Both the position numbers and the translations under genes were made by a program. From a virus: a DNA stretch of 64,000 nucleotides. This document shows positions 24,121-56,455 of this stretch, piece after piece. The stretch lies in IMG/VR virus record IMGVR_UViG_3300044611_002115, positions 13,540-77,539 of that record. One strand, written 5' to 3'. Position 1 is the first letter of the stretch; each line of letters starts with the position of its first letter. The notes below the pieces were generated by a model that saw only the letters and a program-made list of their open reading frames with translations, had not been told where the DNA came from and made no database searches.

Positions 24121-24768
24121 ATGAAGCTCCCAACCTTTAAGAGCAGCCACGAGGGCATAGGGAGCGCCCTAAACACTTTGGCACGCGCCATTGAGGAGTG
24201 CTACCATCGGGGCACAGTCAACTTGGGCGGAAACCTAATGGGGACGCAGGGGCCGGATGGAATAACCATTGAGGGCTGGGGCGGGGAGAGCGGATCAACA
24301 GCGTCAGTCCATGCGCCTTGGGATATTTTCTCATTGGTTGGAGTAGGGACACCGAACCCAGAAACAGGGAAGTATTCTAATTACAAAGCGAAGGTGTGGC
24401 CGGGAACCCTGAACGGCTACCTCCCAACGAACGCCACTTCCGAAACGGGGCTTACGGAGTTCACGATCAGCGGAAGCGCCACGACCATATTTAAGGTTCG
24501 GGCTGCGACTGACGGCAAAGAAATACAAACCCTGCTCATCGTCGCGGACGAAGCGCAGCCTGCCCCCCAAGTTCCTGCCGCAAACGCCATGCCCTCAGCG
24601 TTTGAGGCAGTGTTTGCTATAGTTGACGACGGGGTGGTATATCGCACGATAGGGGGAGGGAACCTTACAGCCACCGCGAACAAGTTGTTTGTGACAGATA
24701 AAACTACGACACCCACCTTCGGGCAGCTTGCTTATACTGCCTACTACATCTGGACGGTGGAGGGCTAG
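24121..24768 (+). CDS. Tail tip protein
   Basis: Beta-rich ORF in the tail-tip position. Confidence 0.6.
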   Translation: MKLPTFKSSHEGIGSALNTLARAIEECYHRGTVNLGGNLMGTQGPDGITIEGWGGESGSTASVHAPWDIFSLVGVGTPNPETGKYSNYKAKVWPGTLNGYLPTNATSETGLTEFTISGSATTIFKVRAATDGKEIQTLLIVADEAQPAPQVPAANAMPSAFEAVFAIVDDGVVYRTIGGGNLTATANKLFVTDKTTTPTFGQLAYTAYYIWTVEG

Positions 24769-24772
24769 GCAG

Positions 24773-26866
24773 ATGAACGTCTTTGAATACACGATCCCCG
24801 CGACAGTCCAACAGCCTGCGGGTAACGCCTCCAGCATCACCTACGAGTTCAAAAGCACCAAGACGAATTCTGACAGTTGGAGGTGGGCGGATTCCAATGC
24901 CGACTCTGGGTGGACGACAAGCTCTGAGAGGGGGGGGACGTGGGGAGGAACCACCCATTCGACAGAATGGACAGACTGCTACGGCAACAAGGGAACGTCT
25001 TGCATAGTCGCGGAAACCGAAAGCAGCAGTTCTTCTATTGGGCGCTCTTACGCCGGTTCCCCGTCCAACTCTAATGGCTCTCAGCACAATCGGAACTACG
25101 GGGCAACAGACGTTTCGTATATCAGCTACACAAAACAGGGAGGGAACAGCAGCACCTCAGAGGCAGGGGCCGATGCTGTAGATGGGGTAAACACTCCTTT
25201 CAACAACGGGGACGGCGATGCTTGGGAGTCCACCGTTTCCTTTTCCTACCACAAGGCAGAGAAAGCCAACTCTGCATACATACATGGGGTGGTGGGTCTT
25301 TCCACGAAGACTTACAGGTCCTCGAACAGTGGGGAGGAAGGATGGCCGACTGCTATTCCCCCATCCTATGTTTGCGGTTCTTCCTACACTCGCACCGCGC
25401 TCACGTTCACTAACGGGTGGTTGCAGGAGACCGTATCTTCGTTCACGTTCACCAAATCAACCACCACATCCACGGCGAGTGGCAGTGGAACAAACACATG
25501 GACGACGACCAAGGAAACAACCACAACCAGAAATAGTTCTTGGAGCTATTATCCAGATGGCGCGACTTACTGCACGAGCGGGGGTGGGACAAAGAGCAGG
25601 ACGGACAACGTGAATTACATAGGGGAAGCCGCAGGGACATCTTCGGCATTAGGGAGCAGCAATCAAACAGTGAAGGTGGTTAGCGGAGATGGAGGCTCCT
25701 CTTTTTTGGTGGCAGCGGAACATGAGCCGCAGACCCTTGCAGAGTTAAAAGACCCCAGAACGTTCCTTAATCTGACAGATCAACTGACCTATGGGGTCAC
25801 AAGCTCGACAAAGCTGGGGACGATCTATACCGTGGCTGACAATGATGCCTTCGCCCTCCTCAGTTATGAAGTCCCGGCATGGACGTATGAGAGCACCTCA
25901 TCTTCGGGAGGCACAAGGGAAAGCTCCTACACTCTTGGCGGGTGGGGTCGGGTGCCTGCCTCGACAGCAGCCTATACCCGCGCAGAGCACACACGGTCCA
26001 CTTGGCTGACCACCCTCACCTCAGAGGCTTCGTATTCCGGCATCGGAGCCACTACAGCAACAAGGGAAGCAACCTCTATGGCTTGGTCGGACAATATAAA
26101 TCCAGTTACCTATTCACAGACTGACGTGCTGCCTGTTTCCACCACCAGCAACATACTCACGGCTACAGAATCGAATGAGGGACGAGGAAGCACAACAAGC
26201 AGGGGGTTCTCTGTCACGGACTGCACCACCTTCCTGCCGAACGCATTTTCGAGGGATCTTGACAGAGACTTGTCGATTGTGGTGAGCGAACAACTTGACC
26301 ATGGGGCCAATGCTCCCGCCTCTTCGATAAACACTGCGCGTATGTATATTTCGGGTAACATCGGGACCACGCTTACGGTTGAGACTATGGCCTCTATCTC
26401 GAATGGAATCCTTGCACTCATCCCATGGCCGACAACATCATGGACATCAGGCAGCAGTTCGTGGGGTATGTCCATCAATGGCAGATCACTAAGCTGGGGG
26501 AAAACGGAGGCGTTCACTAAATCATCCAACCCCTCCGATCCTTCGACGCTATCCACAACGAGCGCCAGCAGCAGCGGATTGCTTTCTGATGCAGGGACGA
26601 ACGGCGGCACGAAGACGGGCAATGTTTTCAGCAGCGTGATTAATGGAAAGATGACCGCCACTTTCGGGTTCGGCTTGTGGGCGGCACTAAAAACGAATTC
26701 TACGGGCGGAACAGTAGAGGCGTTGTCCTTTTCAAACAAAAGCCAAGGAGTCACGACCACCTTGGCTTCCCCAGAATACTTTTCCTTCGCAGGCGCGGTT
26801 CAAGATACAGGGCTTGCGTGGGAGGAAACACCCAACTACATCTCAGTAGAAGTAGAAGAACTATGA
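24773..26866 (+). CDS. Ser/Thr-rich tail/receptor-binding protein
   Basis: About 697 aa, extremely S/T/G-rich, with lower GC than flanks. Confidence 0.7.
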   Translation: MNVFEYTIPATVQQPAGNASSITYEFKSTKTNSDSWRWADSNADSGWTTSSERGGTWGGTTHSTEWTDCYGNKGTSCIVAETESSSSSIGRSYAGSPSNSNGSQHNRNYGATDVSYISYTKQGGNSSTSEAGADAVDGVNTPFNNGDGDAWESTVSFSYHKAEKANSAYIHGVVGLSTKTYRSSNSGEEGWPTAIPPSYVCGSSYTRTALTFTNGWLQETVSSFTFTKSTTTSTASGSGTNTWTTTKETTTTRNSSWSYYPDGATYCTSGGGTKSRTDNVNYIGEAAGTSSALGSSNQTVKVVSGDGGSSFLVAAEHEPQTLAELKDPRTFLNLTDQLTYGVTSSTKLGTIYTVADNDAFALLSYEVPAWTYESTSSSGGTRESSYTLGGWGRVPASTAAYTRAEHTRSTWLTTLTSEASYSGIGATTATREATSMAWSDNINPVTYSQTDVLPVSTTSNILTATESNEGRGSTTSRGFSVTDCTTFLPNAFSRDLDRDLSIVVSEQLDHGANAPASSINTARMYISGNIGTTLTVETMASISNGILALIPWPTTSWTSGSSSWGMSINGRSLSWGKTEAFTKSSNPSDPSTLSTTSASSSGLLSDAGTNGGTKTGNVFSSVINGKMTATFGFGLWAALKTNSTGGTVEALSFSNKSQGVTTTLASPEYFSFAGAVQDTGLAWEETPNYISVEVEEL

Positions 26867-27957
26867 TTGCTATCACTACCGCCGCTACTAAGTCCTATCT
26901 CCACGCTTTCCCGCAGTGCATTCGTTCGATTGCTGCCGCTGCTGCGCACCACGAAAAAGCTCACTTCATTTTTGCCACGGATGACAGCAAGGAAACCAAG
27001 GGTGCGGAGGAGATGCTTCGTCAGGAGCTTCCTGCTGGGTGGGAAATCACCACAATCCGAATGAAGGGGATGGACGACGACTCGAAGGATTACAAACATA
27101 ATGCCCAGCTTCGGATAGCTGCCCTTCAAGGAACGGCCTTTCATTGCGCCCGCGCCAAGGTTAGGGCGGACATGCTGTGGAGCGTGGAGAGTGACAACAT
27201 TGTTCCGGCCAACGCGCTGCGTGTGCTGGAGTGGACGCTGGGCATGCCGCAGGCGGACGGGACGCCCTACTACGACATCGCTGCGGCGACGTATCCCAAC
27301 GGCCTTTTCCTCGGCGGGTTTGGCACGCCGCAGAACCCCATCGCGGAGGACTTCCTGCCGCACGAGCGGGCGCTCCCCGCGAGGCTGCGCCTTTGCTTGG
27401 AGGCGTGCCAGCGCAGGCTGGACGCACAGCAGGTCGAGCACAGCGCCAAGCGCCCCGTCCCTGTTAAGGGCATGGAGCGGGAGGCCAAGCGCCTACACCG
27501 CCTCAAGGAGCGCAGCAAGAAGCACAGCCCAGACGGGAACATTTGGCAGGTCACTGCAAAGCACGGCTGGCGCAGGCGCGGGTGGATGGACTACGCGTAT
27601 CCGGGCATAGGCGAGGGCAGTGTTGTGCCGTCCGATTGGTGCGGGCTGGGGTGCACGCTAATGAGCAAGCGCGCGCTCGCCCTCGCGGACTTCTCCGGCT
27701 ACGACGGCGGCGGGACGCAAGACCTTTTCCTGTGCTGGCAGCGCTGGCATCCGGCAGGGCTGCGCCTTGCCTGCGTCCCTCACGTGGCGTGCGATCACGT
27801 GAAGCGCGAGAAGCGCAAGGTGAAGGAGAAGGACAAGGACGGGAAGGACGTGGAGGTGGAGCGGGACGTGGTGACGCACCACCGCGCCTACCACGAGCAA
27901 GACCCAGACTACAGGGGCCACCTGCGCGTGCGCTCCCAGCCGTGGGTTCCCGTGTAG
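26863..27957 (+). CDS. GT-A fold glycosyltransferase
   Basis: LWSVESD (DxD-like), DWCGLGCTLM, TQDLFLC, CDHV. Confidence 0.7.
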   Translation: MIAITTAATKSYLHAFPQCIRSIAAAAAHHEKAHFIFATDDSKETKGAEEMLRQELPAGWEITTIRMKGMDDDSKDYKHNAQLRIAALQGTAFHCARAKVRADMLWSVESDNIVPANALRVLEWTLGMPQADGTPYYDIAAATYPNGLFLGGFGTPQNPIAEDFLPHERALPARLRLCLEACQRRLDAQQVEHSAKRPVPVKGMEREAKRLHRLKERSKKHSPDGNIWQVTAKHGWRRRGWMDYAYPGIGEGSVVPSDWCGLGCTLMSKRALALADFSGYDGGGTQDLFLCWQRWHPAGLRLACVPHVACDHVKREKRKVKEKDKDGKDVEVERDVVTHHRAYHEQDPDYRGHLRVRSQPWVPV

Positions 27958-28016
27958 CACGAACTCGCGCCCACACACGGGGCGGACTTCCCTGCGCAGC
28001 GCTGCACGAAGTTGCA

Positions 28017-28103
28017 CTGCGCGAATGTAGCTGAATGCCGCTGCGTGCATGTAGCCGATTCCCTGCGTGTGTATGTAGCTGATTTCCGCTGCAACAGTTG
28101 CAG
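28017..28103. repeat. Imperfect 22-26-bp tandem repeat ending in the TGCAAC palindrome
   Basis: CTGCG..ATGTAGC(T/C)GA(A/T)T..C three times, then CTGCAACAGTTGCAG. Confidence 0.75.
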
Positions 28104-28112
28104 TCGTTCCCG

Positions 28113-28156
28113 TCAAAATTCAGTGTTGACAATGAATCTGCAAAACTGCACAATCT
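28113..28156 (+). promoter_or_regulatory. Phage promoter; 38-bp exact duplicate of 38365-38402
   Basis: TCAAAATTCAGTGTTGACAATGAATCTGCAAAACTGCA. Confidence 0.85.
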
Positions 28157-28216
28157 GCCCCGCGTCGTGGAAACGCGGCGCAAGAAACAACACAACCAAG
28201 GAAGACCAAAAACACC

Positions 28217-29854
28217 ATGAAACAGACATCAGCCCGCGAACGCTTCATCTCAGACTTTGAGATTTTGAGCCGCAGCGGAATCGGAGTAATACTGACACGC
28301 ACGCGGGAGCCGCACAGGGCGGAGGACGCGCTGCGGATGTGGGCATTCGAGCACGACAGAAAGTTCCGCTCGTGGAACGCAGTGCGGGGGTGGCTCGAAA
28401 CCGTGCCGGAGAGCACCAAGGGGCAGCGCCCCGTGGCGGACAAGCTCATCGACCCATACATTGCGCTCAAGCGCATCAACGACGTGGACGGGGGCGGGAC
28501 GAACGCGTGGCAGGACACTCTCTGCGCCATGCACTATCCTCATTGGGTGCTTCCCAAAATGCCCGCCTTCATCCAGTGCGTGAAGGAATACGCGCGGGAC
28601 TTCACGGAGAGCAAGCAGCGCCTAGTCCTGCTCACGCCGGAAGGCTTCGTGCTTCCCGTGGAGCTGCAAAACGACATCGCCGTGCTGGACTTCGACCTGC
28701 CCTCTCGCGGGGAGCTGCGCGAAATCTACGGCAACGTGCTGGAGAGCGTGCAGGACAGCAAGGGCGCGCAGAGCGTGCACTACACGGACGCCCAAGTGGA
28801 TGTCCTGCTGGGGAGCGGGAGCGGCATGACGGAGTTCGAGTTTGAAACTGCGCTGTCCAAGGCGTTCATCACGCACAAGGCGCTCATGCCTAACGTGCCG
28901 CTAGAGAAGGTGAACGAAGTCATGCTGGAAACCAAGACGGACGTGGTGAAGCGGAGCGAAGTGCTGGAGCTGATGGAGCCTGTCAACATGAAGGACGTGG
29001 CGGGGCTGGACTTGGCTAAGGAGTGGATCGGCAAGCGCAAGAAGTGCTTCTCAGACGCCGCGAAGGACTTTGGCGTGGACGTGCCCAAGGGCATCTGCGC
29101 CATTGGGCCTCCGGGCACGGGCAAGACGCTGTTCGCCAAGGCCATTGCCAGCGTGCTGCAAGTGCCCCTCATCCGCTTCGACGTGGGCAAAGTGTTTGGC
29201 GGCATCGTGGGGCAGAGCGAGGAGCGCAGCCGCAGCAGCCTTAAGCAGATTGACGCGATGGCTCCCTGCGTGGTGCTCATCGACGAAATCGACAAGGCGG
29301 GCATTGACCCACGGCAGGGGGGCGGGGACAGCGGCGTGAGCAAGCGCGTCATGGGTGCCATCCTCACGCACATGCAGGAGACGAAGGCTCCCGTGTTTTG
29401 GGTGCTCACAGCAAACCGCGTGGACGGACTCCCGCCGGAGCTGCTGCGGAAGGGGCGCTTGGACGAAGTGTTCGCAGTGCTGCCGCCTAACGCCACGGAG
29501 CGCCTTGAGGTGGTCAAAATCCACCTGCGCAAGCGCAAGCAAGACCCCGCGAAGATTAAGGGGCTGGACGCAATCGTTACGCGCAGCGAGGGCTTCGTCA
29601 GCGCGGAGCTGGAGGCCGCAGTGAAGGAGGCGGTGGTGGAAGCCTACGACAGCAACAAGCCCGTCACGGCGGAACTCATCGTGCGCCAACTGGAGGGCAT
29701 GAAGCCCATCAGCGAGGCGTTCGCGGAGGACTTCACACGGATGCGCGAGTGGGCGGAGAGCAATGCGCGCATGGCAAGCACGCCGGAGGAACAGCCGGAG
29801 CCGGAGCACGCGTTCCGCACCCGCACCCGCCGCCGCGCGCTGGACAACAACTAG
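28217..29854 (+). CDS. Ycf46-like AAA+ ATPase
   Basis: N-terminal degenerate domain (TREPHR, LPVEL..D..VLDFDLP), Walker A GPPGTGKT, Walker B VLIDEIDK, TAN..D.LPPELLRKGRLDE. Confidence 0.92.
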   Translation: MKQTSARERFISDFEILSRSGIGVILTRTREPHRAEDALRMWAFEHDRKFRSWNAVRGWLETVPESTKGQRPVADKLIDPYIALKRINDVDGGGTNAWQDTLCAMHYPHWVLPKMPAFIQCVKEYARDFTESKQRLVLLTPEGFVLPVELQNDIAVLDFDLPSRGELREIYGNVLESVQDSKGAQSVHYTDAQVDVLLGSGSGMTEFEFETALSKAFITHKALMPNVPLEKVNEVMLETKTDVVKRSEVLELMEPVNMKDVAGLDLAKEWIGKRKKCFSDAAKDFGVDVPKGICAIGPPGTGKTLFAKAIASVLQVPLIRFDVGKVFGGIVGQSEERSRSSLKQIDAMAPCVVLIDEIDKAGIDPRQGGGDSGVSKRVMGAILTHMQETKAPVFWVLTANRVDGLPPELLRKGRLDEVFAVLPPNATERLEVVKIHLRKRKQDPAKIKGLDAIVTRSEGFVSAELEAAVKEAVVEAYDSNKPVTAELIVRQLEGMKPISEAFAEDFTRMREWAESNARMASTPEEQPEPEHAFRTRTRRRALDNN

Positions 29855-29870
29855 GAGAGGAGCACACGAC

Positions 29871-30503
29871 ATGAAACAGTCAATCCAAACCATGACAGGG
29901 AACGAGACGGTGGCGGATGCGCTCGCTAAAGTGCATCTGTTCCACGTGCAGGAGAAGCGCGAGGACTTCCTTAGCGCGGCGGCAAAGATGCCCCACGGGC
30001 GCGTCCGCTCGCAGGGAAGCCCCGTGTTTGAGAGCGCGGTGGCGGGGGTGCGGCAGGAGATAGGCGGGCGCTGGGTGCGTGCCGTCTATGACGTGGAGGA
30101 GGGGGAAATCCTCAAGCTCTACGTCAGCCGGAAAGGGGGCTGGGGCGAGCAGATGCGCGCGTGCGTGCTGTTCCTCCGCGTGCGCCAGCACGCCGCCCTC
30201 CGGCGCGTGTCCATCCCGCTGCTCAACGTGCCCAACAAGAGCCGCTTTGAGCGGGCGGACATCACGGGGCGCTTCGACGTGCTCACGGCGCGGGAGGTGA
30301 TGGGGGCGGGCTGCGCGGTGTCGCACAGCAGCGTGATGATGTCGGCACGGAGCGCAGTGGACAACACGCTGAGCATCGCGGTGCTGGAGGAGGAAACCAC
30401 AAGCTCGCCTAAGACCGTCGCTGCAACAGTTGCAGTCGAGGGCGGGGAAAGCAAAGTGATCCGCGTGCGCCGCCGCGTGCGCCGGATGGAATTCAACAGT
30501 TGA
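29871..30503 (+). CDS. Hypothetical protein
   Basis: 210 aa; ends IRVRRRVRRMEFNS, with its stop codon inside the next -35 box. Confidence 0.7.
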   Translation: MKQSIQTMTGNETVADALAKVHLFHVQEKREDFLSAAAKMPHGRVRSQGSPVFESAVAGVRQEIGGRWVRAVYDVEEGEILKLYVSRKGGWGEQMRACVLFLRVRQHAALRRVSIPLLNVPNKSRFERADITGRFDVLTAREVMGAGCAVSHSSVMMSARSAVDNTLSIAVLEEETTSSPKTVAATVAVEGGESKVIRVRRRVRRMEFNS

Positions 30504-30527
30504 CAACTAATCTGCAACAGCTAACTT
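30497..30527 (+). promoter_or_regulatory. Phage promoter; 28-bp exact duplicate of 40769-40796
   Basis: CAGTTGACAACTAATCTGCAACAGCTAA. Confidence 0.82.
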
Positions 30528-30585
30528 AATCCCGCCCCGTAACAGGGGCGGAAACACAACCAAAAACCAACAAGGAAAAAACACC

Positions 30586-31038
30586 ATGAGTCATACAACC
30601 AAAATCAATCGCGTCCCCATCAAGGACATCGCCGCCCTGCACAGCGCAGTGGCCGAGCTGCTCGCCAAGGGCGTGCAGTGCACACTCGCGCAGAACGTCG
30701 CGCCGCGCATGTTCTACGGCAACCAGCACGGGGTCTGCGACTACGTGCTGCAACTCCCCGCCAGCCGCTACGACGTGGGGTTCGCCAAGAACGCGGACGG
30801 CAGCTACACTCCCGTCTGCGACCTCTGGGGACAGGACATCAGCCGCAACTTGGGCGCACGCTGCCCGCTGCCCACCAGCACGGAGGGGCGCACGCAGCAC
30901 GCCATTGGACAGCTTATGCAGGGCTACAGCAAGCACGCCGCCATCAACGCCGCCACCGCAGCGGGGCACATGGTCGAGTCCTGCACAGTCAACGAGGAGA
31001 CGGGCGACGTGGAGCTGCTGCTCGCCACCACCTACTAA
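30586..31038 (+). CDS. DUF1257 (Ycf35-like) protein
   Basis: MSH.TKI...D..AL..A..EL...YDVGF....GSY..V.D.W...L.Q.Y.......A...G..VE.....G.V.L. Confidence 0.85.
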   Translation: MSHTTKINRVPIKDIAALHSAVAELLAKGVQCTLAQNVAPRMFYGNQHGVCDYVLQLPASRYDVGFAKNADGSYTPVCDLWGQDISRNLGARCPLPTSTEGRTQHAIGQLMQGYSKHAAINAATAAGHMVESCTVNEETGDVELLLATTY

Positions 31039-31076
31039 TCCCACACCAACCAACGACACACTAGGAGGACACGAAT

Positions 31077-31283
31077 ATGGGAAACAGATACAAAGTCACA
31101 ATCGACCCGCTGGGCAACCCCAAGGTGGAGGGGCTGAACATGCAGGGGAGCATCTGCACGAGCGTCACGAAGCCCGTGGAGGATGCGCTGAGCGGGGGCG
31201 GGGCAAACTGCACGACGGAGTTCAAGCCGGAATACGCGATGCTGGAAAGCAGCGCGGAGGAGCAGGAGCAAATCCTCAACTGA
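31077..31283 (+). CDS. DUF2997 protein
   Basis: VTIDPLG..KVE....G..C...T..VE.AL.......KPEY. Confidence 0.85.
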   Translation: MGNRYKVTIDPLGNPKVEGLNMQGSICTSVTKPVEDALSGGGANCTTEFKPEYAMLESSAEEQEQILN

Positions 31284-31284
31284 C

Positions 31285-31641
31285 ATGGCACAGCTCATCA
31301 CAATAGCGGCGGACGGGAGCATGACCGCGCTGCAAGTCAAGCGGGGGAAGGGGCTGGACTTGCGGCAGTTCGGGCACGCGGACATCGTGCGCAGCTCGCT
31401 CATCGAGTGGGACGCGGAGGTGCAGGGGTGGAAGGTGCGCTTGCTGCACTGCACAGTCGACCACGGGCTGCTCACGCCCGACCTCTGCCACAAGGCGGGA
31501 GTGGACGTGCCGGACACTGCGCAGCGCTACGGCGAGGGCGGGGAGTGCGCGCTCTACTTCGACGAATACGAGGACGCGGTGACAGCGGAAGTGGACGTGA
31601 TCCAAGGGCTGCGCCGCATATACGGGAGGGACGCAGCGTGA
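31285..31641 (+). CDS. Conserved small partner of the AAA/DUF1257/DUF2997 cluster
   Basis: LITI..DG...L....LDL...G...I.R.S.IE.D...W......F.....AV.AEV, resembling from memory the small ORF in such clusters. Confidence 0.6.
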   Translation: MAQLITIAADGSMTALQVKRGKGLDLRQFGHADIVRSSLIEWDAEVQGWKVRLLHCTVDHGLLTPDLCHKAGVDVPDTAQRYGEGGECALYFDEYEDAVTAEVDVIQGLRRIYGRDAA

Positions 31642-31762
31642 AACGCAGTGCAACCAGCCCCCAAAAAGGCTCAAACTTCGCACAAAAAGGCACCCAGCAG
31701 CGCGTTTGGCGCTCTGGGAGGGTAAAGTCAGCGGGCGCAGGGGGAGGGCGCTACAGGGAGCC

Positions 31763-32014
31763 ATGAGCCAGTATCGCTACATCCACAAGGACGGGAGGGC
31801 GTGCGAATGGCTCCCCAGCGGGCGGGGCAGCTACCACGCAATCTGCGCAGCGCTGGGAGACGTGGAAGCCAACGACCTGCTGGGGCTTGACGCGGAGACG
31901 TGCGAGATGAAGTCGGACGGGGGATACAAGTTCGACGCGGAGCACAAGGCGGAGGTGCTGCTCATGCGCAGCACAAAGGACGGCAGCATACTTGGAAGGG
32001 TGCTGCGCAAGTGA
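31763..32014 (+). CDS. Hypothetical protein
   Basis: 83 aa with GGGAG RBS. Confidence 0.6.
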   Translation: MSQYRYIHKDGRACEWLPSGRGSYHAICAALGDVEANDLLGLDAETCEMKSDGGYKFDAEHKAEVLLMRSTKDGSILGRVLRK

Positions 32015-32029
32015 CCAACAATTTTACGA

Positions 32030-32233
32030 GGGCAGGTAGCTCAATAGGTGTGGGTGAGTCTGCGCACAGTGGACGCATGGGAGTCGAGCGACGGCTTCTA
32101 TCTCATGCGCGAGCGGTGCAGGGCAAGTCCCATATCCCGTCGAGGGATAGAGTAGGTGGTGAGTGCGGAGCCGCTGCGCACGGAAGGCCAAGCGAGCCAC
32201 TGATGATTGGAGGTTCGACTCCTCCCCTGCCCA
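32030..32233 (+). ncRNA. tRNA-like RNA with the anticodon loop replaced by a structured insert of about 124 nt
   Basis: Acceptor GGGCAGG/CCTGCCC-A, TAGCTCAA D-arm start, T-arm GGAGG-TTCGACT-CCTCC, and a CAGTGG/CCACTG stem enclosing several hairpins. Confidence 0.78.
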
Positions 32234-32455
32234 CAATTTTCAGTTCCGTTGATCGTGGTGTTCAACGGTTGTGGCGGGGAGGGGTGACACGGGTTGCCCC
32301 TCCCTTGCCGCCACTACACGCTGCAACAGTTGCAGCGCTTATCATTCAACAAAAGACCCCGCCCAGCATTTCTGCCGAGCGGGGTGACACATTAGGTTCC
32401 CAACGAATAGGAGCGGGGATCATCCCCTGTTTCCGCAACACTGTCAACACGCATT

Positions 32456-33679
32456 ATGGCATCAGACTCTTTTTCCAACCCCGTGCACTTCCGCGATTGG
32501 TTCCGCGTAGTCATGCGAAACTGGGCGCAGCACTTATCCCCAGCGGAGGCCATGCTTGTGCTGTTCGTGCTGGACAGGACGATGGGGTGGGGGAAGGAGT
32601 GGGAAATTGTCACGTGCCAGCAGATGCAGGACGGCATCTACTACCAGCGGGACGACGGAGCTGTGGTGGAGGTGGCAGGGGGCATCGGGCTAAGCGCGGA
32701 CAGGGCGCAGCGCTTGCTCACGGGGCTTGTGGAGCGGGGCGTGCTGCGGGCGCGGGGCACAGCGGGGCGGGCGCGGCAGCTTGCGCTCAACTACGAGTGG
32801 ACGCCTGACACGGACATGAAAGTATCCCAGCGCCCAAAGCAGTTGCAGCGCGGGCTGAAAGTGCCCAAATCAACCCCCGTTAATATAACGGCCACCCCCG
32901 TTAATATAACGCCACCCCCCCGTTATATTAACGGACTAAGAGTAGCAAAGCAACAGGACGGAAACAAAAGAGAACGGACTGCCGCGCGAGAGCGCGGCGA
33001 GGGGAGGCTGGCGGAGGTAGCGGACACAGCAGCACAGCGCACGCGGGACAAGCACGCAGCCAAGCTCTCCCGCCTAGCCAATGCGGACACGCTCAGCCTA
33101 GCCTCCCTTTCCTCCGTGTGGGGCGCGGCATGCGCAGCAGCGCACAGCGGGGAGTCACTGCCCGACGTGAGGCAGAAGGACTTCCTCATCCTGCAAGCGT
33201 GCATGCGCAGGCACAGCGCAGGCGAGCATTCCGTGCGCTTCGTTCCCCTGCTGCAATGGAGCGTGGCGCAGTGGCGCAGCATAGTGAGCGCCTACTTCCG
33301 CTGGATGCCCGATGCCCCCGTGCTGCCGGAGCCTCGTTTCTTTGTGCGCTTCATAGACAGGTTCCTCAACGCGCACTCGCGCTTGGAGGAGCTGGAGCGC
33401 TTGCAGAACATGACGACGCGGGAGCAAATGGTCTATCACCTCACGGCGCGCAAGGGCATGTCACAGGAGGCGGCGGAGCGCGAGGTGGACGAGAAGCTGG
33501 GGCTGCTAAGGATCAAGCAGGACATAGAAGCGGAGCGGAAAAAACTGCAACAGTTGCAGTCGAGCAGCGTGGAAGCTGTGGAGTCAAAACAACGCCTTGC
33601 CTTAATGCAGCGGGAAGCTAAGCAAGTCGAGGCGCGGGCGGTAACATTAACCAAAGGAACATTCGACACATGGGAATAG
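32456..33679 (+). CDS. Replication initiator (lambda O-like N-terminal wHTH) containing iterons
   Basis: LSPAEAM.V.FV.DRT.GWGK.WE N-terminus, internal AT-rich repeats, upstream of loader-like and DnaB genes. Confidence 0.72.
   Translation: MASDSFSNPVHFRDWFRVVMRNWAQHLSPAEAMLVLFVLDRTMGWGKEWEIVTCQQMQDGIYYQRDDGAVVEVAGGIGLSADRAQRLLTGLVERGVLRARGTAGRARQLALNYEWTPDTDMKVSQRPKQLQRGLKVPKSTPVNITATPVNITPPPRYINGLRVAKQQDGNKRERTAARERGEGRLAEVADTAAQRTRDKHAAKLSRLANADTLSLASLSSVWGAACAAAHSGESLPDVRQKDFLILQACMRRHSAGEHSVRFVPLLQWSVAQWRSIVSAYFRWMPDAPVLPEPRFFVRFIDRFLNAHSRLEELERLQNMTTREQMVYHLTARKGMSQEAAEREVDEKLGLLRIKQDIEAERKKLQQLQSSSVEAVESKQRLALMQREAKQVEARAVTLTKGTFDTWE
32872..32935. repeat. Iterons / probable replication origin
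   Basis: CGTTAATATAACG at 32878 and 32899, its reverse complement at 32921, each preceded by ACCCCC; 21-22-bp period. Confidence 0.78.
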
Positions 33680-34263
33680 ATCAACAGCAGGAGAGGGAGC
33701 GGGCGGCGGTAGCCAGCTTCCGAGACGCGGGCATTGCCACGCGATATTTGAAAATGGAGGAGTCCCTCATGCACTACGGCGACGGGGGCATTAAGATTGC
33801 GGGGATGCACGCGAGCGGAGCGCTGCGCGAGTCCCTCTACAACGGGAGGGGCTTAGCCATAGTTGGCGACGGGGACAGGGCGGTGAGCGTGACGCAGCTT
33901 GCATGCCGCGCTTCCCTGCTGCTGGGCGTCCCGACGCGCCTCTACACGCTGCCGTGGCTGCGCCGCGTGCTGTGCGGGCAGGGGAGGGACGGGGACGAGC
34001 TGGGAGAGCTGCACAGGGCGCGCGTGGTGGGAGTGCTTGGGTTCTACGACCACAACTTCAAGCATCCCGTGCCGGAGGAGGATTTGTTTAGCATAGGCTG
34101 GTCGCTCAAGGAGCTGCTCATGGACAACAAGGCGTTCATCGTGCACACGACGCAACCGCTGGAGCAAAGTGCGGCGTGGTGGCATGAGGGGCTTGTGGAC
34201 ATGCTACAGCAGCGCGTTGTTCAAGTGCCTGTGGGCGCTGCAAGCAGGAAGGGGAAACACTAA
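33670..34263 (+). CDS. DnaC/IstB-like helicase loader, degenerate P-loop
   Basis: AGI..RY...GRGLAIVG... layout between initiator and DnaB; no GKT. Confidence 0.5.
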   Translation: MGIDQQQERERAAVASFRDAGIATRYLKMEESLMHYGDGGIKIAGMHASGALRESLYNGRGLAIVGDGDRAVSVTQLACRASLLLGVPTRLYTLPWLRRVLCGQGRDGDELGELHRARVVGVLGFYDHNFKHPVPEEDLFSIGWSLKELLMDNKAFIVHTTQPLEQSAAWWHEGLVDMLQQRVVQVPVGAASRKGKH

Positions 34264-34264
34264 G

Positions 34265-35512
34265 ATGAGCCTATACGGAAAACTGGTGGCAAGCGCGCTG
34301 GACACGGGTTCGTCCTCTATCCTGCTGCGCGACGTAGCGACGGCGCACTTGCTGGAGAACGAGCAGCCGCTTGCGGCGTTCCTGCGCTCCCACTTCAACC
34401 GCCACGGCGCGCTTCCCAGCGCAAGCACGCTAAGGTCGAACGGGTTTACGCTTCCCGCCTTTGAGGAGCCAGCGAGCTACTACGCGGAGCGCTTGCGAGC
34501 GCGCTACGCCTTCAACGTCATTAACGAGCGGCACCCGCAGTTCCTCGCCGCCCTTGAGGGGCGCAACATGCTGGAGGCCGTGCACGTGCTGCGCGACATG
34601 GTGGCGACGGTGGGGAGCAGCGTGGAGGAGCAAAGCGCCACAACCTTAGCGGCGGAAGTCGCGGGGGTGGTGGAGGAGTATAGGTCGCGCAAGCTGCAAG
34701 GCGGGCTGGCGGGGCTGACGTTTGGGTGGAGCACGCTCAACGCGCTAACTCTCGGAGCTATGGGCGGCGACCTTGTGGTGATTGCGGGGCGACCCAGCAT
34801 GGGGAAGTCGTGGCTGCTGTTTGAAAGCGCGTATCAGGCGTGGCAGTGCGGGCACAGCGTCGCCATCGTGAGCATGGAGATGAGCAAGCGGCAGGTCACG
34901 CGGCGCTGGATAGGCAGGCACTTGGGAATCAACCCAAACTTTATCAGGGCGGGGCAGGTGAGCGATTGGCAGGAGAGCACGCTAATCAACTACGCGGAGG
35001 GCATCAGCGCCATGCCTCGCGTGACGCTGCTCGCCGGAGACATGCGCAAGGGCATGGACGGGCTGGAGGCGATTATGCAGGAGCACCTCCCAGACGCGCT
35101 CTACGTGGACGCCGCCTACCTGCTAAGCCCAAGCGGGAGGCAGAAGGGTTACGTGAGCAAGTGGGAAACCATCAGCGCCGTGATTTTGGAGCTAAAGCAA
35201 ATGAGCATCCGCTTCAACCGCCCCATCCTCATCACCGTGCAGTTCAACCGCAACCAAAAGAGCGACAGCCGCAAGGAGCTAGACCTTAGCGACATTGCAG
35301 GCAGCGACAGCATTCCGCAGGACGCGAGCATAGTGCTGGGCGCACGCAGGGGACTGCCGCCCTACGACAGCATCCGCAGGCAGGTGGTGATTATGAAGAA
35401 CAGGGAAGGCGAGACGGGGGAGTTCACAACGAACTTCACCTTTACCCCGCCCAACTTGACGGAGATAATAGGGGCAGAGGCGGACGTGGCGGAAGTGGGC
35501 TGGATGGCTTAG
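34265..35512 (+). CDS. dnaB: Replicative helicase, DnaB family
   Basis: IAGRPSMGKS, SMEM, LYVDAAYL, VQFNR, SDSIPQDA, MKNREGE. Confidence 0.93.
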   Translation: MSLYGKLVASALDTGSSSILLRDVATAHLLENEQPLAAFLRSHFNRHGALPSASTLRSNGFTLPAFEEPASYYAERLRARYAFNVINERHPQFLAALEGRNMLEAVHVLRDMVATVGSSVEEQSATTLAAEVAGVVEEYRSRKLQGGLAGLTFGWSTLNALTLGAMGGDLVVIAGRPSMGKSWLLFESAYQAWQCGHSVAIVSMEMSKRQVTRRWIGRHLGINPNFIRAGQVSDWQESTLINYAEGISAMPRVTLLAGDMRKGMDGLEAIMQEHLPDALYVDAAYLLSPSGRQKGYVSKWETISAVILELKQMSIRFNRPILITVQFNRNQKSDSRKELDLSDIAGSDSIPQDASIVLGARRGLPPYDSIRRQVVIMKNREGETGEFTTNFTFTPPNLTEIIGAEADVAEVGWMA

Positions 35513-35543: not shown

Positions 35544-38381
35544 ATGAACATTGACGAGCTTGAGACGGAGAACTTGAACGTGGGGGGAAACCCCGACGCG
35601 CAGATTGCAGTCGTGTGCGACAGCCCATCACAGAACGTGTGGGCGGCGGGGAACGTGATGAGCACGCACGCCATGAACGTGTTTGGGCAGCAGGCGAAGG
35701 ACTGCGGCATGACTAAGGACGACTTCTTTTTCGTCACGTGCTCCCCGCCCATCCCAGAGGAGCATGCGGTGAGCGAGGGGCGCGTGAGCAAGTTCGTGCA
35801 GCCTTACGGGGAGGAGCTGATGCGCACGCTGCAACAGTTGCAGCACTGCAAGCTGGTGATCTACTTGGGCAAGACAGCGGGGCGGCAGGTGCACGGGCGC
35901 AGCATTAAGATCAACTCGCTGCGCGGGCGCTTCCAAAACCTACCCATCAACGGGAGGCAGGTTCCCGTGCTGCCCATGCTAAGCCCCGCCAACGTGCTGC
36001 GCAGGCCGGAAGTGGCGAGCATATTCAACGCGGACTTCCACCAAATCACAGCGTTCCGCGAGGCGGGCTGGAACGTCAAGCGCTACGAAGCGGCGCGGGT
36101 GACGACAAAGTATCAGTGGGTCACAGACCTTAGCGCCATCCTCGCCAACCCTCCCAAGGCGCTCGCGCTGGATACGGAGACGCGTGGCTTGTGGGGAAAG
36201 CCCCTGCTGGCAACAATGAGTTGGGGCAAGGGGCACGGCATCTGCATCCCCTTAGATCACACCTATTACACGGACATGACGGAGGCGGACGAGCGCAAGC
36301 TGCACGCGCAACTCCGCAATCTGCTCGCCAACCCGCGCGTGGCGGTGGCGGGGCACAACTTAGGGTTCGACGTGGCGGCGCTGCGGCGCATTAACATTGA
36401 GGTGGCGAACTGGTATTGCGACACCATGCAGCTTGCCTTCGCGGCGGACGACAACATGCTGAGCAAGTCGCTCGCGGATTGCGTGAAGCGCTGGGTGCCG
36501 GAGCTTGCGGGCTACAGCGACAGCTTCGACGCCACAGTGGACAAGGAGCACATGGAGCTGGTGCCGCTGGAAAAGATGCTGCCCTATGCGGCGGGCGACG
36601 CGGAGGCCACGTTCCTGCTTGCGCAGCGCCTAGTGAAGCTGGTGAAGGAGGACAGCAGGCAATGGACTTGCTTCGTCAAAGTGCAGATGCCCGTGCTGCG
36701 GATGTTTGTGGGGATGAAGGAGCAGGGGATACTCATTAACCAAGAGGCGCTGCGCACGCTGGAGGAGGAGATGGCGGTGAGCGAGCGGGAGCTATACCGC
36801 AAGCTCATCCGGCGCGTGCCAGCGGAGGTGAAGCGCAAGCACATTGACAAGGGGCTGGCGTTTAGCAGGGACGAGTTCGTGCGCGACATCCTGTTCAGCA
36901 AGGAGGGCTTCGGCCTAACTCCCGTCGTGTTCACTAAGACCACGAGCATGCTAAAGGGTGCGGCGCGCATACCCAGCACGAGCGCGAAGGATCACCTGCC
37001 GTTTTTTGCAGAGGACAACAGCTTCGTCGTGGACTTGATCCAATACCAGAAGCTCGCCAAGATGCGCAGCACCTACGTCGGCAGGGAAAGCAAGCGGGTG
37101 GTGACGCGGGTGGTGATGAAGAAGGATGGGACGATGCCAGCGGCGCTGGGGAAGAAGCTGGAGCGCGCGGGGGTGGAGCTGGACTTAGCGACACGCTCCG
37201 CGCTGGTGCAGGGGGTGCGGGCACGCACGCGCAGGCGGGTGCTGGAGTTTGACGACAGGCAGCTCAACGTGGCGCTGAGCGTGCCTATCGGGGAGGGTGC
37301 GGACAACTTGCTGGTGACTGACCGCGACCAACTGTTCCTGTCCCAATACAGCGAGCCGACGGGGTTCTGGCAGCACATCATGGAGGACGGGCGCATCCAT
37401 CCCAGCTTCCACCTTCACCGCGTAGTCACGGGGCGCAGCAGCAGCAGCGATCCGAATGCGCAGAACTTTCCCAAGCGCGGCGCGCTCGCCAAGCAGTATC
37501 GCAAAATCTTCATCCCCTCGGACGGATACAAAATTATTGAGGCCGACCTTAGCCAAGCGGAGCTGCGCATTGCGGCGTGGATGGCAGGGGAGACGACCAT
37601 GCTGCGCATCTACCGCGAGGGCGGGGACATTCACGCAGCAACAGCGGCGGCGATTCTCGGCATCACAATGGAGCGCTTCTCCGCACTCAAGGGCAGCAAG
37701 GAGGAGGTGCCCGCGAAGTATAAGGTGGGCGGGTTTGATGGAAAGACGTGGGGCGAGTATTATGACTTCAAGCGCTTCCAAGCAAAGGCGGTCAACTTCG
37801 GGTTCCTCTACGGCATGGGGTGGAAGACGTTCCGCGTGTATGCGAAAACGGACTACGGCCTCAACTTGAGCGAGGAGCAGTCCATCGCCATGCGCCGCGC
37901 GTTCTTCGCCCTCTACCCCCGCCTCGAAGCGTGGCACAAGAGCATGAGGGCATTCGTGCAGCTTCACGGCTACGTGCGGGGGCTTCACGGCGCGCTGCGC
38001 AGGCTCCCCAGCATCGACAGCGACGACGAGGGCGTGCGGGGCGACTGCGAGCGGCAGGCAATCAACAGCCCCGTGCAGCGCTTCGCGTCCGACTTGGGGC
38101 TGATTGGCATGTTCCGCTTCTGCGAGAACGCGCCCCGCGACGTTGTGCGCCCGCTCGCCTTCATTCACGACGCGGCAGTGCTGGAGGCGCGGGAGGACTG
38201 CGTGCGGGAGTGCGCAGGGGGAATCAAGTGGGCGATGCAGACGCCCCCGCTGGAGGAGTGGTTCGGCATCAAGTCTCCCATCCCCATCCTTGCGGACGTT
38301 TCCGTGGGGACTTCGCTGGGGGCGACGGAGGAGCTGGACGTGGCAGCAGCCGCGCCAAGCTGGATCAAAATTCAGTGTTGA
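35544..38381 (+). CDS. polA: Family A DNA polymerase with N-terminal UDG-like domain and 3'-5' exonuclease
   Basis: LDTET (ExoI), HNLGFD, YAAGDA, TGRSSSSDPNAQN, DLSQAELR (motif A), AKAVNFGFLYG (motif B), NSPVQ, IHDA (motif C). Confidence 0.95.
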   Translation: MNIDELETENLNVGGNPDAQIAVVCDSPSQNVWAAGNVMSTHAMNVFGQQAKDCGMTKDDFFFVTCSPPIPEEHAVSEGRVSKFVQPYGEELMRTLQQLQHCKLVIYLGKTAGRQVHGRSIKINSLRGRFQNLPINGRQVPVLPMLSPANVLRRPEVASIFNADFHQITAFREAGWNVKRYEAARVTTKYQWVTDLSAILANPPKALALDTETRGLWGKPLLATMSWGKGHGICIPLDHTYYTDMTEADERKLHAQLRNLLANPRVAVAGHNLGFDVAALRRINIEVANWYCDTMQLAFAADDNMLSKSLADCVKRWVPELAGYSDSFDATVDKEHMELVPLEKMLPYAAGDAEATFLLAQRLVKLVKEDSRQWTCFVKVQMPVLRMFVGMKEQGILINQEALRTLEEEMAVSERELYRKLIRRVPAEVKRKHIDKGLAFSRDEFVRDILFSKEGFGLTPVVFTKTTSMLKGAARIPSTSAKDHLPFFAEDNSFVVDLIQYQKLAKMRSTYVGRESKRVVTRVVMKKDGTMPAALGKKLERAGVELDLATRSALVQGVRARTRRRVLEFDDRQLNVALSVPIGEGADNLLVTDRDQLFLSQYSEPTGFWQHIMEDGRIHPSFHLHRVVTGRSSSSDPNAQNFPKRGALAKQYRKIFIPSDGYKIIEADLSQAELRIAAWMAGETTMLRIYREGGDIHAATAAAILGITMERFSALKGSKEEVPAKYKVGGFDGKTWGEYYDFKRFQAKAVNFGFLYGMGWKTFRVYAKTDYGLNLSEEQSIAMRRAFFALYPRLEAWHKSMRAFVQLHGYVRGLHGALRRLPSIDSDDEGVRGDCERQAINSPVQRFASDLGLIGMFRFCENAPRDVVRPLAFIHDAAVLEAREDCVRECAGGIKWAMQTPPLEEWFGIKSPIPILADVSVGTSLGATEELDVAAAAPSWIKIQC

Positions 38382-50731: not shown

Positions 50732-51280
50732 ATGAACGCACCCAGCGCATCAAAACTCGAAATTCACGCCTTTCTGTGCGAAGCACAAGCCTTCTACGAA
50801 GCGGCGTTCTCCCGCTTGGGCATCGCGCGGGAGGGCGCGTGCCTCCTGTGGGCAATCGCTGCAACAGTTGCAGCACGGCAGCAGGGGCACCGCGCTATCC
50901 TGCAAGGGGGCAGCGCCAACTTCCTCACCGTAGCGCACAAGCGCGACGACGGGGTGTGCAACAACGGATTCGGCTACACGTTCATCGCAGCGGAGGCCGT
51001 GCAGCACGTGCGGGCGGGGAACTTCCCAGAAATGCACGTGTGGGCAGCGCTGCCTGACGTGCGCCCCGTGCCTCTCCTCATCGACCTCACCACGGGGTTC
51101 CAGCCCGTGCAACTGCTGCGCATGCGCGGCGTCCGCTGGGACGAGGAAGTGCTGCCCCCGCCCTACCTCGTCGCCCCCGTGAACGATTTGCCCGACGAGC
51201 TGCAATACACGGCTGACCCCGTGGCAACGGCCTACGCCATGCGCTGCGCGGTGGAGCTGTGTGGGAGGGACATCATATGA
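50732..51280 (+). CDS. Hypothetical protein, possible Cys-His-Asp (transglutaminase/papain-like) fold
   Basis: GACL.W ... HVW ... IDLT spacing. Confidence 0.5.
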   Translation: MNAPSASKLEIHAFLCEAQAFYEAAFSRLGIAREGACLLWAIAATVAARQQGHRAILQGGSANFLTVAHKRDDGVCNNGFGYTFIAAEAVQHVRAGNFPEMHVWAALPDVRPVPLLIDLTTGFQPVQLLRMRGVRWDEEVLPPPYLVAPVNDLPDELQYTADPVATAYAMRCAVELCGRDII

Positions 51281-52059
51281 GCAACCCAATGGCGCTGGAC
51301 AACACGGGGGCACGCTACAGCCCGCACCCGCTCGCCGTGCTGCACTTGGAGTGCACAACAGCGGGGCACGACAAGTTCTACGAGCTTGCACTGCACGTGA
51401 GCACGGATGCACACACGCTCGCGCTCGTCTCCTATTGGGGCAAGCGCACACAGCTCGTCTGGGGCACGCTGCAAGCGTCCTTCCGCCGCAGCACCAACCA
51501 GCGCAAGCTGCAAGGCACCACATCCATGCTCTCCGGCTGGCCCATGCTGTCTCCTGTAGCGCTGCGCATAGTCTCCGAGAAGCGGGAAAAGGGCTACGTC
51601 CTTTTTCCGCAAGGCACGGCGGGAGTGGGGCGCTTCCCCGACGAGAGCATCCGCATGGGCGAAGCCGTGCGTGCGTTCCAAGCGCTGTCCGATAGCGCGA
51701 AGCTGCACGTCATAGCCAACGGCGTCACGCTGGGAGAGGGGACGCAGACGGGGCGCTTCACCGCCACGCCCAACACGCAGCCCATCCCCAGCGCACAGCG
51801 CAGGAACCCCGACCACGTGGAGGTGCGGGACGCATCGGGCGCAGTTGTGGCAGTTGCCATCCGCCCCCAGCCCCAGCCGGAGGAGGACGAGGAAGTGGGG
51901 GACGTAGTGTTTACAGTCACGCCGGAGGAGCTGCTTGCACGCGCCCGCAGGGCTGCGGAGGGAGCAACCCCTGCCCCAGAGGGGGAAAACAGCACAGCGG
52001 ACGCTACAGCGCGAACAAACCGCCCCAGCTACGTGCGACGCAGGAGACTTGAGCTATGA
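51277..52059 (+). CDS. WGR-like domain protein
   Basis: HDKFYEL...YWGKR...SEKREKGY; ends RRRRLEL. Confidence 0.6.
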   Translation: MSNPMALDNTGARYSPHPLAVLHLECTTAGHDKFYELALHVSTDAHTLALVSYWGKRTQLVWGTLQASFRRSTNQRKLQGTTSMLSGWPMLSPVALRIVSEKREKGYVLFPQGTAGVGRFPDESIRMGEAVRAFQALSDSAKLHVIANGVTLGEGTQTGRFTATPNTQPIPSAQRRNPDHVEVRDASGAVVAVAIRPQPQPEEDEEVGDVVFTVTPEELLARARRAAEGATPAPEGENSTADATARTNRPSYVRRRRLEL

Positions 52060-56141: not shown

Positions 56142-56455
56142 TGAACTTGGGCGACGTGATAACTGTGGACGGGGAAAGCTACCGCGTGGAAGCGACGGAG
56201 TGGACTGCCGACGAGCAGGGGCAGCGCATGTCCGTGACACTTGTGCGCTACACGGGAGTCAATCAGCTTGCGCCGGAGCTAAACCCGCCGCCCCGTGCGG
56301 GGGAGCGCGTGCCAGTGGAAAACGTGCTGGGCGACGCACTGGAGGCAGCGCTCACGCCGGAGCAGGCCGACCTGCTGCGTGCAATGCGGGAGGCGCAGCA
56401 GGGGGAAACGCCCCCAGCGCCCCAGCGCAAGCGGGGCCGGAGGTTGGAGCTGTGA
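56141..56455 (+). CDS. Hypothetical protein
   Basis: 104 aa; ends RKRGRRLEL. Confidence 0.65.
   Translation: MNLGDVITVDGESYRVEATEWTADEQGQRMSVTLVRYTGVNQLAPELNPPPRAGERVPVENVLGDALEAALTPEQADLLRAMREAQQGETPPAPQRKRGRRLEL

Follow-up and report, generated by a model that had tools for sequence, protein, structure and literature searches.

The 64,000-nucleotide window analysed here, bases 13540-77539 of the complete 77,539-bp IMG/VR virus record IMGVR_UViG_3300044611_002115 with direct terminal repeats, carries ahead of its replication genes five co-oriented plus-strand genes that lie between 28126 and 31641 and encode an AAA+ ATPase, the open reading frame 2 (ORF2) product, a DUF1257 (Ycf35-family) protein, a DUF2997 protein and the ORF5 product. 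We tentatively read this module as a phage-lineage Ycf46/Ycf35(DUF1257)/DUF2997 system, in which an AAA+ remodelling motor with dedicated partners acts when replication of the phage genome begins or close to that point, and assign this reading a probability of roughly 0.45. The gene families and their cellular neighbourhood were already known, while the five-gene phage form, the two extra families, the predicted dead first AAA domain and the place in the replication block are new here. No description of a phage Ycf46/DUF1257/DUF2997 module was found in the literature, and GenBank records of cultured relatives label the genes just 'AAA ATPase', 'DUF1257' and 'DUF2997'.

Results

The five-gene order is shared with Rhizobium phages RHph_I4 and vB_RleS_L338C, Aeromonas phage HJ05 and Rhodobacter phage RcTiptonus, and with Pseudomonas phage SM1, in which the same genes occur in order with one inserted gene; the same module was also present in 15 IMG/VR contigs. 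The arrangement AAA-ORF2-DUF1257-DUF2997-ORF5 was observed in 19 of the 20 DUF1257-bearing phage loci, with ORF2 undetected in L198 and the ATPase gene truncated by the contig end in L196. Downstream of the module, the DUF1257-bearing loci have a DnaB-like helicase gene followed, where the locus extends far enough, by that of a family-A polymerase (PolA), with an O-like initiator detected between the module and helicase/PolA in 15 of 18 loci. The corresponding genes of the window lie at 32456-33679 (O-like initiator), 34169-35512 (DnaB-like helicase) and 35544-38381 (PolA). A helicase-anchored survey, which avoids selecting for the module, was limited to loci in which the helicase identity reached 27% and the upstream flank was a complete 10 kb. 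Of the 38 loci of this kind, 36 had all five genes; one of the two exceptions was without a detectable ORF2 and the other had the AAA and DUF1257 genes just past the flank and an intein in the ATPase. Relatives differ in the genes 5' of the module but share the replication genes downstream of it. Given this retention, the fixed position before the replication genes and an origin of the ATPases in what appears to be one old clade, the module points to a core gene set and not to a variable counter-defence cassette.

A second, more distant lineage was represented by six IMG/VR contigs (L260, L263, L265, L271, L278 and L285), in which DUF1257, DUF2997 and ORF5 lie upstream of the helicase gene and the ATPase gene about 9 kb downstream of it, approximately 12 kb from DUF1257-DUF2997-ORF5 in the same genome. 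The DUF1257 match was weak and restricted to L260 and L285, and ORF2 was undetected in the six contigs. Because the ATPase stays in the genome after rearrangement, this arrangement supports a functional rather than merely positional linkage. A search of genome contigs with the single DUF1257 protein returned no relative. DNA matching the window is present in lake-water metagenomes of several studies.

An earlier note on this DNA, made from its letters alone, had described a four-gene module with an intact AAA+ ATPase preceded by a degenerate AAA-like domain, DUF1257-like and DUF2997-like proteins, a fourth small ORF and two phage promoters. All four genes that it named are in place and each of these features was borne out by the analyses below, but the gene count was not, since ORF2 (29871-30503) had been overlooked and the total is five. 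The catalytic domain of the ATPase is intact: PF00004 matches residues 294-420 (E 5.8e-30), and the Walker A motif (GPPGTGKT, 297-304), the Walker B residues D356/E357, sensor-1 N400 and both Arg fingers (R411/R414) are invariant in an alignment of 32 homologous sequences. The same alignment has V331, G332 and E335 of pore loop 1 invariant, the loop reading L/I/M-V-G across the family and S-M-V-G in cyanobacteria. Since the closest curated families, as judged from the best NCBIfam matches, are CDC48 (top), FtsH and PAN, the ATPase falls in the classic clade. A family-specific helix (WA..NAR.AS) follows the C-terminal lid and is succeeded by an Arg-rich tail ending in ...RTRTRRRALDNN. The ATPase search gave over 3,600 matches (E<=0.001), of which the best 120 were inspected and the remainder probably includes other AAA families; a locus search based on Walker A was too generic to be of use.

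Profile-profile comparison (hhalign) of the ATPase N-domain with the AAA domain gave no similarity (probability 0.5%). The AlphaFold2 model of residues 1-250, built from 18 sequences, had a predicted local distance difference test score (pLDDT) of 92 and a predicted template-modelling score (pTM) of 0.87, with elements in the order α0-β1-α1-β2...β5 plus a helical lid, the helix 6-19 and the strand 24-29 opening the chain. Foldseek comparison of this model with the PDB yielded at least 500 matches at E<=0.001 with TMq values of about 0.5, and the top matches listed were all AAA+ proteins (RuvBL1/2, RFC, TRIP13, Rix7, Rpt subunits, Pex1/6, p97 and Ycf2-FtsHi). Residues 1-250 contain neither a GxxxxGK[ST] P-loop nor a DE Walker B motif. 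A domain with an AAA+ fold but devoid of both motifs is expected to be dead, and the ATPase is therefore modelled as a tandem AAA protein with a dead first domain followed by an intact second one.

Some relatives have an intein in the ATPase, and inteins often sit in important replication-type genes. In a relative of locus L223, the homologous ATPase gene is an open frame of 838 codons into which extra sequence is inserted at Walker A (G466:C1:64730-67099), and database relatives of this ATPase bear an intein and LAGLIDADG domains (P0084; Atlas cluster, 147 members).

The ATPase was found to be Ycf46-like, as the earlier note had proposed. In cyanobacterial genomes, reached via a 16S primer search, the Trichodesmium homologue aligned with phage ATPase residues 13-522 at E 3e-74 and the Chlorogloeopsis homologue, a Ycf46-type protein, with residues 116-522 at 35% identity and E 2e-74; the Atlas model of the N-domain superposed on the Atlas cluster named ycf46 with a template-modelling (TM) score of 0.82. 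In a tree that was midpoint-rooted only, the ATPases of the phage modules formed one clade (100/99), with the cyanobacterial groups and a Corndog-type ATPase on the other side, and the phage proteins would accordingly constitute a sister subfamily of cellular Ycf46 and not its orthologues.

In both Chlorogloeopsis and Trichodesmium one ATPase paralogue has a DUF1257 gene directly after it and a gene of about 113 codons before it, the same layout as in the published stress operons slr0373-slr0374(Ycf46)-slr0376 and Synpcc7942_0416-0418 (PMC7496141, PMC13683863). The equivalence of the sampled cyanobacterial loci to slr0374 is inferred from gene order. Among 61 sampled Cyanobacteriota genomes, DUF1257 was present in 32, the ATPase (E<=1e-40) in 40 and DUF2997 in 37. 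The AAA gene was adjacent to a following DUF1257 paralogue in 21 genomes; every copy of the short DUF1257 paralogue (21 of 21) adjoined an ATPase gene, and every canonical Ycf35 gene (21 of 21) was preceded by DUF2997. Clusters of all three families were found in at least five of these genomes (G446, G430, G437, G455 and G461), once in the order of the phage. Across 401 sampled Pseudomonadota genomes, DUF1257 was detected in a single one (G083), within an ATPase-DUF2997-DUF1257 cluster. The ORF2 and ORF5 profiles matched none of the cellular loci examined. The cyanobacterial neighbourhood thus consists mostly of two separate pairs, and the phage merges both and adds two genes of its own. The conserved neighbourhood asserted in the earlier note therefore stands as regards linkage in cellular genomes, but is mostly split into two pairs and, in the genomes sampled, rare outside cyanobacteria; the survey of phages versus chromosomes that it had advised separates a five-gene form in phages from pairs and some triads in cyanobacterial genomes.

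Three cellular loci had further peculiarities. In the G083 cluster (L207, 8722-10310) the ATPase reads as two ORFs, with an in-frame stop exactly between the dead N-domain (256 residues) and the AAA domain (271 residues); a split of the gene, its decay to a pseudogene or an error of sequencing could each account for this. The triad of cyanobacterial genome G461 (L201, contig 103) lies in a seeming mobile-element or prophage region with genes for an MT-A70 methyltransferase, an HTH_3 regulator, a Rieske protein and DUF6283, and with DUF3846 directly after DUF1257. In two Cyanobacteriota genomes of about 2 Mb (L206 and L205), a protein of 331-420 residues without assigned family is encoded between the ATPase and the small partners.

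As for the small proteins of the phage module, the DUF1257 assignment is sustained by a PF06868 match of 32.2 bits, above the cut-off of 22.2. The extreme N-terminus of the family is invariant (MSHTT here, MSHF[ST] in cyanobacteria), with a few other invariant polar residues in a 31-sequence alignment. The AlphaFold2 model is a small α/β domain with pLDDT 86 overall and below 50 for residues 1-7. Its candidate assignment as a KA1-like or IntS9/11 C-terminal-domain-like α/β domain was discarded, the best VIA Z of 4.6 being under the stated noise level of the tool, and no fused DUF1257 forms longer than 309 residues were found, which is weak evidence. The DUF2997 protein scored 23.9 bits, just below the PF11211 cut-off of 24.1, over positions 3-46 of 47. 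Each of the 14 phage homologues in the alignment nevertheless matched PF11211 (E<=0.01, the lowest being 5.8e-11). Genuine cyanobacterial DUF2997 genes were recovered with the profile of these homologues, and we treated the protein as a member of the family. Its alignment has invariant G13, G24, C27 (the one invariant cysteine) and K50, a K-P-E-aromatic motif and an acidic tail.

ORF2 had no Pfam, PHROG, PADLOC or NCBIfam match. At the 50%-cluster level, a profile search retrieved 697 relatives, each of which stands alone as a protein of about 200-230 residues, and the few invariant residues of the family suggest a structural or adaptor role. The ESM Atlas model of ORF2 was poor (pLDDT 0.31) and gave no usable match. 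ORF5, the fourth small ORF of the earlier note, matches phrog_38408 and is conserved in every related locus, without any Pfam match. Its identification with DUF3846, the domain that follows DUF1257 in L201, gained no support from Pfam scans of 14 ORF5 members or from hhalign, and no similarity was seen between ORF5 and the small gene upstream of cyanobacterial Ycf46. From these profile searches, ORF2 and ORF5 appear to be phage-only families. Searches of PDB sequences with the DUF1257, ORF2, ORF5 and DUF2997 profiles returned nothing below E 0.04.

An Arg-rich C-terminal peptide is common to the ATPase and ORF2 and is conserved across both families. The ATPase tails have the form PRRRx[LI][DEG], ending ...RRRALDNN here, and cyanobacterial Ycf46 has a similar tail (...QR[LM]EF). 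The ORF2 tails are R-R-x-R-A-L-D-L-like, and R.[LIVM][DE]x occurs in the last 12 residues of 79 out of 146 representatives, compared with 0 in internal control windows. Of the 74 predicted genes in the window, four end in [RK]R.{0,1}[LM][DE][LFN] versus 0.02 in shuffles, a significance that is overstated because the pattern was defined post hoc. Two other window proteins, encoded at 51259-52059 and 56141-56455, have tails like those of the ATPase and ORF2 (...RRRRLEL and ...RGRRLEL). PolA contains VRARTRRRVLEFDD in an insertion before its polymerase domain (residues ~558-575); as a conserved tag this stretch was rejected, because the pattern used did not recover it from PolA in related phages. 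A different kind of C-terminus was noted in the replication proteins: the O-like initiator and the DnaB-like helicase of the window end in ...GTFDTWE and ...AEVGWMA, both proteins end in acidic-Trp peptides (DWME, EWSRV, PEWGE) in many relatives (L184-L198), and many DUF2997 tails end in ...TW or ...SW (cyanobacterial ...FSDW). By analogy with T7-type replisomes, the acidic-Trp tails may serve to dock these proteins to a basic patch.

The promoter word TTGACAANNAATCTGCAA was found in 11 copies in the window, all on the plus strand, against 0.37 expected. Aligned, the copies have a -35 TTGACA, a conserved spacer and a weak -10. Two of them, P1 at 28126, which scored 10/12 in a sigma-70 scan, and P2 at 30500, are the phage promoters of the module, which is thereby wired into the phage's own promoter set, as the earlier note had held; the same promoter class also serves the replication region. 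Since these copies precede the ATPase and DUF1257 genes, respectively, the module is predicted to form two transcription units, ATPase+ORF2 and DUF1257+DUF2997+ORF5. P1 is followed by a hairpin, read from the sequence, and a CA-rich leader that ends in ...AACACCATG; a similar hairpin and CA-rich leader are seen after the copies at 30500, 38378 and 48962. The palindrome GCTGCAACAGTTGCAGC(G) was noted at 28088-28105, just 5' of P1, and again at 32319-32337, before the initiator gene, and words resembling TGCAAC..GTTGCA are found ahead of the promoters at 33 and 48962. Within the module, ORF2 starts 16 nucleotides past the ATPase stop codon, preceded by GGAGAGGAG, and ORF5 starts 1 nucleotide past that of DUF2997.

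Table 1 Features of the module in the window.
Feature	Position	Strand	Description
Promoter P1	28126..28154	+	-35 TTGACA, conserved spacer AATCTGCAA, -10-like CACAAT; precedes ATPase and ORF2
Leader hairpin after P1	28158..28180	+	CCGCG...CGCGG, read from sequence; CA-rich leader follows
AAA+ ATPase	28217-29854	+	545 residues; PF00004; phrog_8638 (E 7e-157)
ATPase residues 1-250	28217..28966	+	Predicted degenerate (dead) AAA+ domain and lid (AlphaFold2, Foldseek, Atlas); homologous to Ycf46 N-domain
ATPase residues 251-545	28967..29854	+	Classic-clade AAA domain with intact motifs (PF00004), lid, C-terminal helix, Arg-rich tail
ORF2	29871-30503	+	210 residues; position conserved in related loci; ends in ...RVRRRVRRMEFNS
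Promoter P2	30500..30528	+	Exact copy of TTGACAANNAATCTGCAA; overlaps ORF2 stop codon; precedes DUF1257, DUF2997 and ORF5
Leader hairpin after P2	30531..30552	+	CCGCCCC...GGGGCGG, read from sequence
DUF1257 (Ycf35-family) protein	30586-31038	+	150 residues; PF06868
DUF2997 protein	31077-31283	+	68 residues; PF11211
ORF5	31285-31641	+	118 residues; phrog_38408 (E 7e-15)

The window has a G+C content of about 62%, with nearly all genes on the plus strand. On the 3' side, an 815-nucleotide stretch (31642-32455) separates ORF5 from the O-like initiator gene and contains a lineage-specific ORF (31706-32014; G+C at third codon positions 0.83) with no homologue in the related loci. The stretch also holds a structured region, and its call as 'tmRNA*' (transfer-messenger RNA) by ARAGORN (32140-32478) was dismissed as unsupported, an Rfam scan of 27900-32600 being without match. 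On the 5' side lie genes for a Ser/Thr-rich protein of 712 residues, maybe a tail-fibre (24728-26866), and for a weakly glycosyltransferase-like protein (26866-27957; Glyco_tranf_2_3, 20.6 bits versus a cut-off of 27). Outside the window and about 37 kb from the module, the genome has a QueC-like, QueC, QueD, QueE and FolE cluster (G000:C1:1679-5312, locus L210), which is a 7-deazaguanine (preQ0/archaeosine-type) DNA-modification pathway unrelated to the module.

Discussion

In the mechanism that we propose, the ATPase hexamer would thread or pry apart a protein substrate, a role as unfoldase or remodeller that is inferred from the family. DUF1257 and DUF2997, the only partners in common with cyanobacteria, would act together as adaptor or regulator of the ATPase or as its obligate client, with the invariant and flexible DUF1257 N-terminus as a candidate engagement site. 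ORF2, which shares the Arg-rich C-terminal peptide of the ATPase, and ORF5 would adapt the machine to the phage task, the likeliest being the assembly, activation or recycling of a complex required at the onset of replication.

The link to replication is the weakest step of this interpretation. It rests on synteny in one lineage, for which common descent or a shared early-middle timing could account, and the homologous operon of cyanobacteria is a stress-induced growth-arrest operon and not a replication operon (PMC7496141, PMC13683863). The pore loop I330-V331-G332 is aliphatic, without the usual aromatic residue, and the DUF1257 model had no Foldseek match in the PDB at E<=0.001. Related ATPases also occur in mycobacteriophage cluster O (Corndog) and in a Streptococcus satellite, and Corndog was rejected as a carrier of the module, the neighbours of its ATPase gene matching neither DUF1257 nor DUF2997. 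For no member of the family has a substrate, an interaction or an activity been demonstrated. All of these points weigh against a remodelling motor for replication start.

The closest known counterpart is the cyanobacterial Ycf46 operon, with which the phage shares an ATPase composed of a predicted dead N-domain and a live AAA domain (33-38% identity over near full length) and an AAA+ gene directly followed by that of a DUF1257 protein starting with MSH. The cellular operon differs in being stress-induced, in the presence of a small gene upstream, which in S. elongatus is copG-like (PMC13683863, PMC7496141), and in the absence of ORF2 and ORF5, with DUF2997 usually at another locus. The other cellular pair is represented by the duf2997-ycf35-fed7 cluster (PMC4284462), in which DUF2997 also adjoins the DUF1257 gene, a pair present in 21 of the 61 Cyanobacteriota genomes; there, however, DUF2997 comes first, the locus has no ATPase and the neighbour is, according to the literature, a ferredoxin gene (PMC4284462), whereas the phage has a single DUF1257 gene for both contexts. 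Cdc48/p97/VAT and other tandem (type II) classic-clade AAA+ unfoldases, whose cofactors dock by way of short peptides, resemble the phage system in their tandem AAA folds, in the classic-clade sequence affinity, in small putative cofactor proteins and in a C-terminal peptide common to ATPase and partner. Unlike Cdc48/p97, the phage ATPase has no double-psi-barrel N domain, its chain beginning with the AAA-like domain, its D1 is predicted to be dead, without P-loop, its pore loop is without the aromatic residue, and cofactor docking is hypothetical. By analogy, the module may work like the remodellers that serve lambda O-P-DnaB (DnaK/DnaJ/GrpE) and the Mu transpososome (ClpX) at the start of replication, its genes lying near those of an O-like initiator and a DnaB-like helicase; lambda and Mu, however, employ host chaperones of other families, and an initiator or helicase as client is hypothetical here.

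The earlier note had suggested a machine for host takeover or anti-defence. On this reading the target of the ATPase would be a protein of the host, for instance a defence effector, nucleoid protein or growth regulator, which would be unfolded or extracted with the small proteins as targeting adaptors. Expression probably precedes that of the late genes, the promoters being of the sigma-70-like host type, and stress and arrested growth are linked to the cellular homologue (PMC13683863), a state that a phage copy could impose. The hosts of the cultured phages, moreover, are Pseudomonadota, a group with DUF1257 in only one of the sampled genomes, so that the phage brings a complete system. Against these considerations, PADLOC gave only generic matches to the AAA core (IetA, TRIP13 and mad8) and no match to the four partners. 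The likeness to IetA of IetAS (E 1.5e-16) and to TRIP13/Pch2 of CBASS (E 4e-08) is confined to that core, with the IetS protease and HORMA absent. Counter-defence genes are typically patchy and found in variable regions, whereas the module is near-universal in its lineage (36 of 38 loci), at a fixed position before the replication genes, with monophyletic ATPases. We consequently regard takeover or anti-defence as unlikely, and the claim was not upheld.

An activase or maturation chaperone, similar to Rubisco activase/CbbX or to MoxR-type AAA+ proteins, would instead remodel the cofactor or radical site of one enzyme, with DUF1257 and DUF2997 in the client system. Several observations in cellular loci agree with this alternative, namely NrdG-like radical S-adenosylmethionine (radical-SAM) genes directly upstream of the ATPase in L206 (5469-6074, 129.5 bits) and L205 (7303-7968, 126.0 bits; TIGR02491 cut-off 126.1), the Rieske protein inside the L201 cluster, the duf2997-ycf35-fed7 cluster of the literature (PMC4284462) and the one invariant cysteine of DUF2997. 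Neither a radical-SAM nor an Fe-S gene lies in the phage module itself, the distant QueE being the sole radical-SAM gene of the genome, and, replication proteins aside, no candidate client enzyme is conserved beside it, which makes an activase similarly improbable in the phage. The invariant MSH[TF][TS] N-terminus of DUF1257, from cyanobacteria to phages, could also be that of an unrecognised peptidase (Ser-His-Thr-Thr here) serving a new ATP-dependent protease, as HslV does with HslU, and the conserved C-terminal peptide of the ATPase recalls the docking tails of proteasomal ATPases. This is very unlikely: no partner matches any peptidase family, the DUF1257 model has neither an Ntn-hydrolase sandwich nor a match to any peptidase fold (ORF2, ORF5 and DUF2997 being without alignment-based folds), and the N-terminus is predicted to be flexible and not part of an active site. 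Least probable of all is a chaperone for virion or tail assembly that would remodel structural proteins, a role suggested by the possible tail-fibre and weakly glycosyltransferase-like genes that the module follows; these upstream genes are not conserved in relatives, as the downstream replication genes are, and the module promoters belong to the same class as those of the replication region.

A bolder form of the replication reading would make the AAA+/DUF1257/DUF2997 triad one ancient machine of cyanobacteria, plastids (ycf46, ycf35) and phages of 70-110 kb, to which RRx[LM][DE]x-tailed proteins dock as cofactors or clients and which is obligatory for the start of phage replication. In the window, the proteins so tailed would be the ATPase itself, ORF2 and at least two others, those of 51259-52059 and 56141-56455. 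We consider this extension doubtful.

Conservation of Ycf46 and Ycf35 extends from cyanobacteria to many algal plastid genomes. To our knowledge their mechanism is not known, the published work consisting of expression patterns and mutant phenotypes only. In the phage lineage, the ATPase, the two small partners and two phage-only proteins form a single compact unit with promoters of its own, retained almost without exception beside the replication genes. Several members can be cultured on tractable hosts (Pseudomonas aeruginosa, Rhizobium, Aeromonas and Rhodobacter), which makes knock-outs, substrate traps and reconstitution straightforward and could make the function of Ycf46/Ycf35 accessible. 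Results obtained with the phage proteins would probably transfer to those of cyanobacteria and plastids. For phage biology, they would reveal a core function that is widespread but lacks annotation in a large set of siphovirus-sized genomes from the environment.

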